IMG/VR virus record: IMGVR_UViG_2698536369_000016
From: a virus
Taxonomy: Duplodnaviria; Heunggongvirae; Uroviricota; Caudoviricetes
Strand: one strand, 5' to 3'
DNA length: 5,095 nt
Both the position numbers and the translations under genes were made by a program. The notes beneath the pieces are model-generated. The model worked only from the letters and a program-made list of their open reading frames with translations. It was not told the DNA's origin and ran no database searches. Below are positions 1 through 5,095 of the stretch, piece by piece (within the stretch, counting starts at the first letter, position 1; every line of letters begins with the position of its first letter).

Positions 1-61
1 CCAGAACCATACGAATCGCCCTCTGACGGACTTCGGGGGAAAAACGAGTATTTTTAGTCAT
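1..61 (-). CDS. IS3-family transposase OrfA, N-terminal 20 codons (partial, runs off the window)
   Basis: ATG at 61-59 on the minus strand, preceded by AGAGG; translation [20 protein letters not shown]. Confidence 0.75.
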   Translation of the reverse strand, partial: MTKNTRFSPEVRQRAIRMVL

Positions 62-115
62 TCTGTTTACCTCTTTCTCAGGGAGTTTAGTCTCCAGGAT
101 TCCCGGGGCGGTTCA
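1..115 (-). mobile_element. IS3-family insertion sequence (IS629/IS1203-like), left terminus and start of orfA; element continues beyond the window
   Basis: Bases 1-115 are the exact reverse complement of 4981-5095. The terminus reads TGAACCGCCCCGGG on the minus strand (IS3-family TG...CA type end), followed by an AGAGG Shine-Dalgarno and an ATG opening [20 protein letters not shown], which I recognise as the IS629-type OrfA N-terminus. Confidence 0.8.
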
Positions 116-796
116 GGCCGCTTTTTCGATCTGGCAGGTACCTTTGATTTTAGGCGTCGAGCCGCGAATGGATTTTGGCCATACAGAGCCCTCAATACGC
201 TTATCCCCCAGCAGGGTTGGCGAGCCCTCTTTTTCGACATCCGGCTCGAACGAGGAAAGCTCGTCATAGCAGACCACGTCCACGGATTTTTCACGGTAGT
301 TTTTGGCGGCTGCACCGCCCAGGCACCAGAAACCGACGCCCGATGAAAAGCGTTTCAGCGTGAGAGTATTGTCACGATGTTTACGACCCAGCCATGGGGA
401 AAGGTCTTTCAGGCATGGCACGTTCCGAATCGTCGCCTCCACGTGAGACTTCATAAAATCTTCAGCGGCAGAATCCGTGGGCTGAAAAAGCAGACTGTTT
501 CGGGATTTATGCTCAATAAAATACCCGCCCCCCCCCAGCAACATCTTTGTATAGCCAACACGGGCAGATTTAATCAGGTTAACCGTGCGAACCTGGTCGT
601 TACCCATACAGTTCATAATGGCGATCTGGAATGGCAGCGTTTTCCATTCTCCCTCACCATATGAAGATTCTTTAGGCAGATAATAATTTTGATCAGCCCA
701 TTCAACTGCCGTCATTGGTACAACCCTGACCAGAGGCTGCAGCGCAACCGAAACGGCAGCCATCATATTATTCAGTTGTTGCTCTGATATATTCAT
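113..796 (-). pseudogene. A: terminase large subunit (lambda gpA-like), N-terminal 227 codons, truncated at the IS junction
   Basis: Translation MNISEQQLNNMM...TAVEWADQNYYLPKESSYGEGEWKTLPFQ...KSARVGYTKMLLG...WCLGGAAAKNYREKSVDVVCYDEL...GDKRIEGSVWPKSIRGSTPKIKGTCQIEKAA is collinear with the N-terminal ATPase region of lambda gpA. The frame ends at TGA (113-115), which is the first three bases of the IS terminus; a full gpA is about 640 aa. True ATG is at 796-794; the longer six-frame ORF to 853 is an upstream extension. Confidence 0.85.
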
Positions 797-1277
797 CGAG
801 TAAATCCGGTAATTTATCCCCTGCCCGCGCACACTGATTTGCCCCCTTAGCAATAAGGGTTTTCAGATGGTCAAGATGGCGCGGTGTTAAATCAGGAAAC
901 TGTCGCTGCATGGATAAAGGGATGGAATCAAGCGTACTGGATAACGCCATTGCCAGCTTACTGAGGGCAAAAATACAGAACCCGGTGTCAATAAGTTTTC
1001 CTTTTGACACCTCATTTTTTAACTGCTGTGTAACAGCCTGTTCTGCTGTCAGTTCCCATCTGGCAATAAGCAATTTCTCCTCATAGTCGTCTTCGCTATC
1101 GCCATCAGGCACATCGTTTTTACTTCTCCTCAGATACGATATGTAAAAATCGCGCCAGGCATCCAGATCCAGTTGCCCTCGCTTATTCGATATCGGGGCA
1201 CCCGGCAATTTCTGCAATCTGCGAAGCTGGCGATCGGTCAGACTTAAATGCCTGGCAACTTCAGTCTGCGTAGCCAC
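768..1277 (-). CDS. nu1: terminase small subunit (lambda Nu1-like)
   Basis: 169 aa. The C-terminal two-thirds resembles lambda Nu1 (TGFCIFALSKLAMALSSTLDSIPLSMQRQFPDLTPRHLDHLKTLIAKG...LLDEYI). The N-terminus has an HTH-like segment (LSLTDRQLRRLQ) that differs from lambda. GTG start at 1277-1275 with GAGGTGAGGA immediately upstream. The 3' end overlaps the gpA start by 29 nt, as in lambda. Confidence 0.8.
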   Translation of the reverse strand: MATQTEVARHLSLTDRQLRRLQKLPGAPISNKRGQLDLDAWRDFYISYLRRSKNDVPDGDSEDDYEEKLLIARWELTAEQAVTQQLKNEVSKGKLIDTGFCIFALSKLAMALSSTLDSIPLSMQRQFPDLTPRHLDHLKTLIAKGANQCARAGDKLPDLLDEYIRATTE

Positions 1278-1316
1278 TCCTCACCTCGCAAAAACTCTCA
1301 CCTCACAATCACAACA

Positions 1317-1423
1317 AAACCGGTCATGTCCGGTTTACATGTCTGTTTTTTGTTCATGTCCGGTTCACAGAAGACCTGTTTTTATATTTTTCATATAGTT
1401 AACTTGAAGAGAAACCGGACATG
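1317..1423. repeat. cosB-like array: four copies of a 12-mer AAACCGG(A/T)CATG in both orientations (candidate small-terminase binding sites)
   Basis: Copies at 1317-1328 (+), 1325-1336 (inverted; the two overlap to form the palindrome AAACCGG-TCATGT-CCGGTTT), 1355-1366 (inverted) and 1412-1423 (+). An AT-rich spacer 1376-1410 lies between them. The array sits between cosN and the Nu1 start, where lambda has its R sites and IHF site. Confidence 0.55.
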
Positions 1424-1460
1424 GATCCCGGAAAATTTTCATAAATAGCGAAAACCCGCG

Positions 1461-1472
1461 AGGTCGCCGCCC
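1461..1472 (-). other. cosN: 12-nt cohesive-end sequence (minus strand GGGCGGCGACCT)
   Basis: Plus strand 1427-1472 is the reverse complement of GGGCGGCGACCTCGCGGGTTTTCGCTATTTATGAAAATTTTCCGG, the lambda left-end sequence as I recall it. The flanking CGTAACCTGTCGG at 1473 onward matches the lambda right end (cosQ side). Confidence 0.8.
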
Positions 1473-1509
1473 CGTAACCTGTCGGATCGCCGGAAAGGAC
1501 CCACGAAAA

Positions 1510-1524
1510 TGATAATAATTATCA
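1510..1524. promoter_or_regulatory. Fur-box-like 7-1-7 palindrome TGATAATaATTATCA
   Basis: The sequence matches the 7-1-7 inverted-repeat description of the Fur operator (TGATAATnATTATCA). It lies about 40 bp from cosN and about 155 bp upstream of the plus-strand ORF at 1680. Confidence 0.3.
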
Positions 1525-3347: not shown

Positions 3348-3445
3348 AATGGACAACCTCAGAAAGAATCTTTTATACTTCCTCACAGGGAAAGTACCTC
3401 CCTACCCATAATTTCTCCCTTGCCTTACTCAAGGTCAGAAAACAC

Positions 3446-3482
3446 AAAACCCCGCTTGCTGCCAACAAACGGGGTTTTTACT
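3446..3482. terminator. terminator-like hairpin in the R-Rz intergenic gap
   Basis: 9-bp stem AAAACCCCG (3446-3454) / CGGGGTTTT (3470-3478), 15-nt loop, T-rich on both sides. Confidence 0.35.
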
Positions 3483-3567
3483 TTTATTCACTTAGGTTTT
3501 ACCAGTTTTCAGGATTTCGTGTTATCCACCCGCGTTGGCCAACGTCATTTTTCAGGAAAATATTCTG

Positions 3568-4101
3568 CTATCTGTCGATGTCCCAGCACGCCAGCGCGCT
3601 CTCCTGGTCACGCCGTGAGACCTGACCGTAGCAATTATTTGAACGGATACGGCAGTCTCTGCCACCGTCCTTAATCCACCAGCGAATCGCCTCACAGGCA
3701 CCTTTTCGATCGCCTGCATTAATTCGTTTATAAAACGTCGACGGGAAGCACTTACCGGGGCCAATGTTGTACGGACAGAATGACGCGATCCCCGCTTTCT
3801 GGGGTTCGGTCAGCGGCACCCGGATGTTTTTCTCCACCCATGCCAGCGCCTTGTCACGTTCGATGGCATTAACCCGGTCGCATTTTTCCTTTGACAGCTT
3901 CATGCCAGGAATAACAGGCTTACCATCCACCAGAATGGCACCACGGCAGAGGGTCCAGATCCCCGCACCATCACGGTATGCCGTGGTGTGGTTACCTTCC
4001 TTTTCATCCAGAAACTGGTCGAGGATTTCAGGCGCAGAAGCACCTGCACCAATCAGCGCCAGAACGGCAGCCGACAGGCCGTATTTTATTTTTTCGTTCA
4101 T
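3568..4101 (-). CDS. R: SAR endolysin (GH24, T4-lysozyme-like; phage 21 R21 / Stx-phage R type)
   Basis: 177 aa. N-terminal Gly/Ala-rich weakly hydrophobic segment (YGLSAAVLALIGAGASAPEIL), typical of a signal-anchor-release domain. E-x8-D-x5-T catalytic spacing in EGNHTTAYRDGAGIWT. The remainder matches lambdoid prophage lysozymes as I recall them. ATG at 4101-4099. Confidence 0.88.
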   Translation of the reverse strand: MNEKIKYGLSAAVLALIGAGASAPEILDQFLDEKEGNHTTAYRDGAGIWTLCRGAILVDGKPVIPGMKLSKEKCDRVNAIERDKALAWVEKNIRVPLTEPQKAGIASFCPYNIGPGKCFPSTFYKRINAGDRKGACEAIRWWIKDGGRDCRIRSNNCYGQVSRRDQESALACWDIDR

Positions 4102-4218
4102 GGGGATTTATCGATTTCTAATCCCTTGATATGTTAGGTATATAATCCAACACTCATGGTCGCTCTCATAAACATATCCCTTGAGACGCAGCAGATTACA
4201 ACAAATGAAGCCATATAA

Positions 4219-4533
4219 ATGAACAGTAAAGAAAGTTTGCGCAGAAGATTTTTACAACTAATGACAGAAAACGTTAAATCAGAGTTACTTCTTCTGATGG
4301 CAGATAATAACGAAGCAACAAGCAGCATTCTTGCAGACCCTTACGGTAAGATCTCACATAAAACGCTGGATATTATTACCACAACATTAACACCGCTGAT
4401 GCTTCAACGGCTGAAACATAATATCAACGCATGGGTTAATGAAGAATTAAGTCCTCCCTGCTTATGGGATTCTCGTTACGCATGTCAGCAAAAAATGCGA
4501 ATTTTCAACTTACTATCACCAAAGCTCAGGTAG
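4219..4533 (+). CDS. hypothetical protein (104 aa), orphan ORF antisense to the lysis operon
   Basis: ATG-initiated ORF, MNSKESLRRRFLQLMTENVKSELLLLMADNNEATSSILADPYGKISHKTL..., in an AT-rich 687-bp insert between S and R. A TATAAT hexamer lies at 4141-4146; the Shine-Dalgarno is weak. No family recognised. The minus strand here has no ORF longer than about 15 codons apart from one unsupported 64-aa ORF at 4134-4328. Confidence 0.35.
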   Translation: MNSKESLRRRFLQLMTENVKSELLLLMADNNEATSSILADPYGKISHKTLDIITTTLTPLMLQRLKHNINAWVNEELSPPCLWDSRYACQQKMRIFNLLSPKLR

Positions 4534-4788
4534 CCATAAAATCCTGCCCTTCATGGCATACAGGATTTCAATGGAATCACAATGACCAACTCTTGCACAG
4601 CTGTATCCCTGACTCCCCGACAACTCAGATTTTCAGTATCTGCTGCTATCTAAAGAGAAAGCGCACAAATGCAAGGGTCTTTCATCACGTCCTGTTATTG
4701 ATTGCCTGTGACCTTTTCTTACCTCATGGAACGTTTTTTCAGTTAGAAATATTCATTTTACAACCAGTTCGTATTGTTTATTCATCGA

Positions 4789-4980
4789 CTACTCTCCCCG
4801 CGCCACCTTACGCTTATCTTCTTTAATCTTGAAATAAAGGTTAGTCAGATACGTCAGCAGGCCAAACAGCAGACTCCCCAGCACACCGATTGCCACCCAC
4901 TGGGACGGAGAGACTTTGTCCAGCAGCTGCAGTAACCAGTATCCCGTCCCCACCGCTGACGTGGTGTATGACACACCCGT
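4789..4980 (-). pseudogene. S: class II pinholin S (phage 21 S21-like), 5'-truncated by the IS
   Basis: Translation ...[63 protein letters not shown] matches S21-type pinholins from about residue 5 onward. The frame runs directly into the IS terminus at 4981 with no in-frame ATG; the six-frame call begins at a GTG (4974-4972). Confidence 0.8.
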
Positions 4981-5095
4981 TGAACCGCCCCGGGAATCCT
5001 GGAGACTAAACTCCCTGAGAAAGAGGTAAACAGAATGACTAAAAATACTCGTTTTTCCCCCGAAGTCCGTCAGAGGGCGATTCGTATGGTTCTGG
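4981..5095 (+). mobile_element. IS3-family insertion sequence (IS629/IS1203-like), left terminus and start of orfA; element continues beyond the window
   Basis: TGAACCGCCCCGGGAATCC... terminus at 4981; AGAGG then ATG at 5035; exact inverted copy of 1-115. Confidence 0.8.
5035..5095 (+). CDS. IS3-family transposase OrfA, N-terminal 20 codons (partial)
   Basis: [20 protein letters not shown], with an AGAGG Shine-Dalgarno 8 nt upstream. Confidence 0.75.

Follow-up and report, generated by a model that had tools for sequence, protein, structure and literature searches.

In pathogenic Escherichia coli, insertion sequences (IS) of the IS629 group are well documented as agents of prophage decay and of small structural polymorphism. 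In O157:H7, 62% of the IS629 copies sit in prophages or prophage-like elements, with duplications of 3-4 bp (PMC3271280), and insertion of this group in E. coli prophages is commonplace and already well described (PMC3271280). Here we describe a stretch of 5,095 nucleotides (nt) from the virus record IMGVR_UViG_2698536369_000016 of IMG/VR (the whole stretch is called the window below), in which two inverted IS ends cut two late genes of a lambda-like prophage, the large terminase gene gpA and the holin gene. The window is comparable to the IS629/IS1203 insertions in lambdoid prophages of enterohaemorrhagic and enteropathogenic E. coli (EHEC and EPEC), such as those of O157:H7 Sakai and EDL933, in that the IS group and the late-gene target are the same (PMC3271280). 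The consequence would also be alike, namely prophage inactivation and strain-specific polymorphism (PMC3271280).

The window is best explained, at a probability of roughly 80%, by two IS629/IS1203-group copies of about 1.3 kb each that inserted in the late operon of a common PerC-encoding lambda-like E. coli prophage, with the missing parts of the two genes lying just beyond them. Copy A would then sit in the large terminase gene past codon 227 and copy B 15 nt into the holin gene, and the two copies would be oppositely oriented with their left ends facing one another. The contig would be what the assembler could build between the copies before it was halted, 115 nt inside each IS, by the repetition of that sequence in the genome.

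The terminal arms and the insertion sequence

First, the two ends of the window were compared with each other. Bases 1-115 were the exact reverse complement of bases 4981-5095 (100% identity), and the complementarity ended at base 116. A perfect repeat of 115 nt within 5 kb rules out a chance origin. The 115-nt arm was also 100% identical to the left end (positions 2001-2115 of locus L005) of a complete 1310-bp IS3-family element of E. coli W2-5. The full copy in that strain (L005 2001-3310) is bounded by TG...CA imperfect inverted repeats, TGAACCGCCCCGGG... and ...CCCGGGGCGGTTCA, which agree at 30 of 40 nt, and it ends ...GGTTCA. Its transposase coding sequence, annotated as 'programmed frameshift', starts at nt 55 of the element. 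A length of about 1.3 kb, with orfA and orfB linked through a -1 programmed frameshift to encode a DDE transposase, is typical of the group, and this reference copy has it. On the plus strand of the window, bases 4981-5095 open with TGAACCGCCCCGGGAATCCTGGAGA, and the ATG at 5035 begins orfA, of which 20 codons are visible. The features by which the IS629/IS1203 group of the IS3 family was recognized, a 5'-TG terminal repeat, a short leader and orfA, were all present, with TGAACCGCCCCGGG... starting at 4981 and orfA at nt 55. An annotated IS1203 was 94.7% identical to the full element of strain W2-5 and 97.4% identical to the 115 nt of the window. IS629 sub-types differ by 4-5% (PMC3271280), and the divergence from IS1203 fits this separation.

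Judged from their sequence, the arms are the left ends (left inverted repeat, IRL) of an IS3-family element of the IS629/IS1203 group, facing inward. The left end of copy A (1-115, minus strand) comprises the IRL, a 54-nt leader and the first 20 codons of orfA, and its transposase reads leftwards, out of the window; the left end of copy B (4981-5095, plus strand) has the same sequence, and its transposase reads rightwards, also out of the window. Ends matching this arm were present in 3,606 of 5,426 complete E. coli genomes. An initial annotation of the letters alone had proposed both the exact complementarity of the two ends and the inverted IS3-family termini with their orfA starts, left ends inward, and the alignments bore out both proposals.

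The window proved to be the full reverse complement of the 5095-bp contig CYBM01000078.1 of a short-read E. coli draft assembly (GCA_001284545.1), and among NCBI contigs the truncated gpA protein described below was recorded on exactly this one. Where a short contig ends in perfect inverted repeats, these usually mean two repeat copies that the assembler could not cross, and their length reflects the assembler. As the window equals a whole short-read contig, its two arms of 115 nt each are most likely assembler overhang into a repeat and have no biological length, and the arm length says nothing on the size of either IS copy. A left IS end at both ends of the contig requires at least two IS copies, or two fragments that each bear a left end; a single IS copy does not suffice.

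Junctions with the phage genes

Between the arms, bases 116-4982 (4.87 kb) aligned as one colinear piece, at 99.9% identity, to uninterrupted lambdoid late regions in complete E. coli genomes, one intact reference being NZ_CP027550 1441491-1446371, and at least 80% of the window was held by 210 complete E. coli genomes. Both junctions were placed by alignment with the intact prophage L002. At the left junction, gpA reads ...GAA AAA GCG GCC and then passes into TGA ACC... of the IS, so that the gene is broken after codon 227 of 642 and the terminal TGA of the IS serves as the stop codon. The remaining open reading frame (ORF), gpA' (113-796, minus strand; codons 1-227 of 642), matched Pfam GpA_ATPase (E=2e-35) and has been deposited as CTU22441.1. 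At the right junction, the holin gene reads ATGGAAAAAATCACA and is followed by ACGGGT...; the break falls after nt 15 of this 68-codon gene and removes MEKIT together with the start codon. The TG at 4981-4982 can be assigned to either the IS or the phage. The comparison with L002 thus agreed closely with the initial annotation, in which gpA was cut near codon 228 and the holin had lost about five codons.

The left junction was reproduced by an independent Logan assembly of ERR137786, in which contig L004 runs 28 nt into the IS, which argues against an artefact. Neither junction was found as a contiguous match among the 5,426 complete E. coli genomes, nor among the representative genomes of GTDB species, and for this reason the arrangement looks strain- or lineage-specific. 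Apparent full-coverage matches to the junctions were all rejected, since each consisted of two pieces, with the IS copy lying 235-390 bp from these sites.

Two further contigs were considered as matches to the right junction and rejected. In L006 (Logan, ERR2235284) an A run is one base shorter (ATGGAAAAATCACA) and the holin gene is otherwise uninterrupted, and L007 is a 355-nt contig fragment with no IS junction. At about 437-455 of L006, the shortened A run gives the same 61-amino-acid (aa) GTG-start holin call as in the window; the shortening may be a sequencing error.

Simple insertions at the two sites would predict target duplications of GCC in gpA and ACG in the holin gene. On the gpA side, the outer flank would be expected to show the IS right end followed by GCC-AACGAGTCG.... 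On the holin side, the outer junction would be expected as ...ATGGAAAAAATCACAACG, then TGAACCGCCCCGGGTTTCC, where the 5' part of the holin gene, ...ATGGAAAAAATCACA(ACG), would be joined to an IS right end.

Consequences for terminase and holin

From what is known of lambda terminase, a gpA of 227 residues would keep only part of the ATPase domain and lose the nuclease domain as well as the portal-binding end, and with these parts lost the prophage would be unable to cut its own intact cos or to package DNA. Codons 89-90 of gpA' (window positions 528 and 531) encode Gly-Gly, as against Val-Val in the intact homologues L001 and L002. The difference comes from two T-to-G changes 3 nt apart, which produce a run of nine G just past the Walker-A-like KSARVGYT, and contig L004, which is independent, carries the same bases at 528 and 531. 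Either decay of a dead gene or a systematic read error might account for this change.

The decapitated holin (4789-4980, minus strand; codons 6-68 when set against the intact 68-aa protein of L002) is of class II, the P21 type (Pfam Phage_holin_2_1, E=5e-30). It has been deposited as a 61-aa call with a GTG start (CTU22488.1), and only the GTG at 4974 could start it. In the lysis cassette, R, Rz and Rz1 are intact and the holin is without its ATG and first five codons, so that a set of four translatable lysis genes was not found in the window. A holin product is unlikely to be made without the start codon, and on the model of P21-type lysis the timing of lysis would be lost. The holin frame runs on, antisense and without a stop, over the whole of the 115-nt right IS arm as far as the contig end (4975-5094, minus strand), and there may be a longer fusion ORF that starts inside the IS in the holin frame.

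The distal part of gpA

The fate of gpA beyond the left junction was investigated by protein look-up. A simple insertion with the 3-bp duplication GCC and a right end of the L005 type would interrupt the gpA frame by a stop ahead of M234 and offer no start codon there. Of four guessed sequences of 409 aa beginning at M234, one was present in the protein collection and three were absent. By exact look-up it is CTU19008.1, 'terminase large subunit', a 409-aa gpA fragment that starts from M234, the first ATG past the predicted junction. CTU19008.1 was found on a single contig of 20,170 bp, with NCBI and Logan as its sources. The window proteins CTU22441.1 and CTU22488.1 share the CTU series and this pair of sources with it, and CTU22441.1 was likewise found on a single contig. 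The parsimonious explanation is that the remaining gpA begins a 20-kb contig of head and tail genes in the assembly to which the window belongs. The presence of a distal gpA fragment on record favours simple insertion over deletion, and the gene call at M234 agrees with the predicted 3-bp duplication. Clustered at 90% identity, the truncated gpA falls into a group of 68 members, and all 15 of the members listed were gpA fragments of N-terminal length (126-273 aa).

Weighing of alternative arrangements

Several points weigh against two full-length insertions with the missing gene parts adjoining them. The right junction was not recovered from a second, independent assembly by the look-up of the 61-aa holin call. 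The window holds 115 nt of each IS copy, from which the full-length copies are extrapolated. The distal part of gpA apparently adjoins an IS right end in the same assembly, as judged from where a gene call starts, from the shared accession series and from the single contig counted for each gpA part. The initial annotation had suggested looking for the rest of gpA beyond the left IS; a fragment of the right extent does exist, and its placement in this assembly is only apparent. Finally, IS-mediated deletion or rearrangement could have left unrelated DNA beyond one or both IS copies, the segment then being a stranded remnant of a prophage. The sister prophage of strain ESDR8 (L010) shows exactly such an outcome, and the outer flank on the holin side could differ in this way; however, gpA residues 234-642 are recorded on a 20-kb contig of the same accession series, so that the head-tail side was apparently retained, and we regard a deletion as improbable.

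Recombination between inverted repeats flips the intervening DNA, and the segment is flanked by identical inverted repeats, presumably of 1.3 kb each. The 4.87-kb segment might therefore be inverted relative to the rest of the prophage, or both orientations might be mixed. No data oppose such an inversion, but no positive evidence for it was obtained, and it is considered unlikely. A crossover inside the IS would leave all four junction sequences alike in both isomers, and short-read contigs would thus be uninformative on orientation. It is very doubtful that the block, with its intact cos, small terminase, lysis genes and PerC-family virulence regulator, serves as an invertible or mobilisable cassette, whose orientation would switch its coupling to the late promoter or whose cos would let a co-resident lambdoid phage with a matching terminase package adjacent DNA. 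Among the origins offered in the initial annotation, two separate insertions are favoured by the distal gpA fragment, and a composite unit bounded by the IS found no support. The segment is bracketed by two copies of one IS, as it would be in a composite transposon that moves cos, the small terminase, the lysis genes and the PerC-like gene as a block. However, the inner junctions were absent from the complete and representative genomes searched, the genes are cut exactly as simple insertions into a resident prophage would cut them, both outward-facing ends of the unit would be right ends, and a complementary gpA fragment exists; a composite transposon is accordingly given hardly any weight. 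The arms are exactly equal and lie at the contig ends, where assemblers are least reliable, and one or both IS ends might have been wrongly appended to phage genes that are truly intact. Such an artefact is extremely improbable, since the left junction recurs in L004, the gpA call from M234 fits a true break, and the interior is perfectly colinear with the reference prophages. In addition, judging from the behaviour of assembly graphs, the contig would have broken at the junctions had the genome also carried an intact copy. Two simple insertions of an IS629/IS1203-group element thus remain the preferred explanation.

Gene content of the segment

The gene content of the segment was assigned by Pfam and by the RefSeq annotation of homologues. 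On the minus strand the order is holin, a 90-aa ORF (opposite strand), lysozyme, a 35-aa ORF, Rz/Rz1, a PerC-family gene, a DUF3950 gene (opposite strand), cos, the Nu1-like gene and gpA. The order holin-R-Rz/Rz1-PerC-like-cos-Nu1-gpA that had been read from the sequence at the outset was recovered by Pfam and by alignment with lambda cos. In the phage collection there was no close full-length match to the segment, the best match having 57% coverage and 92% identity, and a literature search on the accession numbers returned no relevant paper.

The terminase end of the segment contains a lambda-like cos module, in which cosN lies 184 nt upstream of the Nu1-like gene, and the truncated gpA overlaps Nu1. 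The Nu1-like small terminase (768-1277, minus strand; 169 aa) is intact; it matched Pfam Phage_Nu1 over residues 49-150 (E=1e-18), and its homologues are annotated as 'terminase small subunit' (WP_000235436.1). The cosN and cosQ side (1428-1620, minus strand) was located by alignment with the circularised lambda cos junction. The cosN 12-mer GGGCGGCGACCT (1472-1461) is identical to that of lambda, and the cosQ side is near-identical. The region at the position of lambda cosB in this alignment (1318-1423) contains four copies of CATGTCCGGTT, two per strand, against an expectation of 0.06. These copies are candidate binding sites of the small terminase, and a specificity other than that of lambda seems likely both for cosB and for the portion of the small terminase that binds DNA. 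Contig L004 spans window positions 88-1297, and its end falls 20 nt upstream of the start of Nu1; 4 nt before that end, at 1294, it carries a mismatch. This break and mismatch hint that the ERR137786 reads include another lambdoid prophage with the cos region in common.

The endolysin (3568-4101, minus strand; 177 aa) is an RrrQ-like lysozyme (Pfam Phage_lysozyme, E=5.7e-23; rrrQ lysozyme in the annotation of L002). Its N-terminal segment is rich in Gly, Ala and Ser, and the enzyme is probably of the signal-anchor-release type. The Rz spanin (2765-3232, minus strand; 155 aa) was identified by Pfam Phage_lysis (E=8e-49), and the Rz1 lipoprotein (2827-3012, minus strand) is embedded in Rz in another frame (Pfam Rz1, E=1.7e-21). 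Between cos and Rz/Rz1 lie the genes for a YlcI/YnfO-family (DUF3950) small protein of 74 aa (1680-1904, plus strand; Pfam DUF3950, E=1.3e-17, and RefSeq name) and for a PerC-family transcriptional regulator of 104 aa (1986-2300, minus strand; Pfam PerC over its full length, E=3.8e-44; RefSeq WP_001303878.1).

Two gene calls with no Pfam match complete the segment. One is a hypothetical ORF of 90 aa between holin and endolysin (4261-4533, plus strand; RefSeq WP_000138558.1), and the other a hypothetical ORF of 35 aa (3240-3347, minus strand; RefSeq WP_000675931.1 in L002). Window position 3240 is T, as against C in L001 and L002, which gives the small ORF 35 aa instead of 37. Within the late operon, between the endolysin and the 35-aa ORF, a terminator-like hairpin with a 15-bp stem and a T run was observed (3446-3478, minus strand).

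Discussion

The arrangement in the window is an ordinary and well-described kind of prophage decay, with the end effects of draft assembly superimposed, and it has little import beyond strain typing. Unless terminase and holin come from another phage resident in the strain, the PerC-encoding prophage is probably trapped in the chromosome; in principle, a lambdoid prophage in the same cell could make good both the packaging and the lysis defect.

In sister prophages, including L001 and those of O157:H7 genomes and of strain Z1323HEC0108, an IS629/IS1203 element occurs about 300 bp upstream of this holin. Unlike the known insertions of this group, the window has two inverted copies that bracket a lysis-cos-terminase block, at sites absent from the 5,426 complete genomes. 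The sister prophage in strain ESDR8 (NZ_CM169472.1) has identical Nu1, YlcI/YnfO and PerC proteins and carries a like IS in like orientation in gpA, about 235 bp further in than the insertion in the window. Past this IS (L010 2283-4466) come an IS3 remnant, nleC, a tail-fibre-assembly fragment and nleH, with no distal gpA. The ESDR8 arrangement is the outcome of an IS-associated deletion, whereas residues 234-642 of gpA were apparently kept in the source genome of the window.

The window shares its gene order with the late regions of lambda and phage 21 (S-R-Rz/Rz1 ... cos-Nu1-A), and its holin is of the P21 type. It differs from lambda on the cosB side and in the N-terminal part of the small terminase. 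In comparison with lambda and phage 21, it adds the PerC-family gene, the DUF3950 gene and two small hypothetical genes, and its gpA and holin genes are disrupted.

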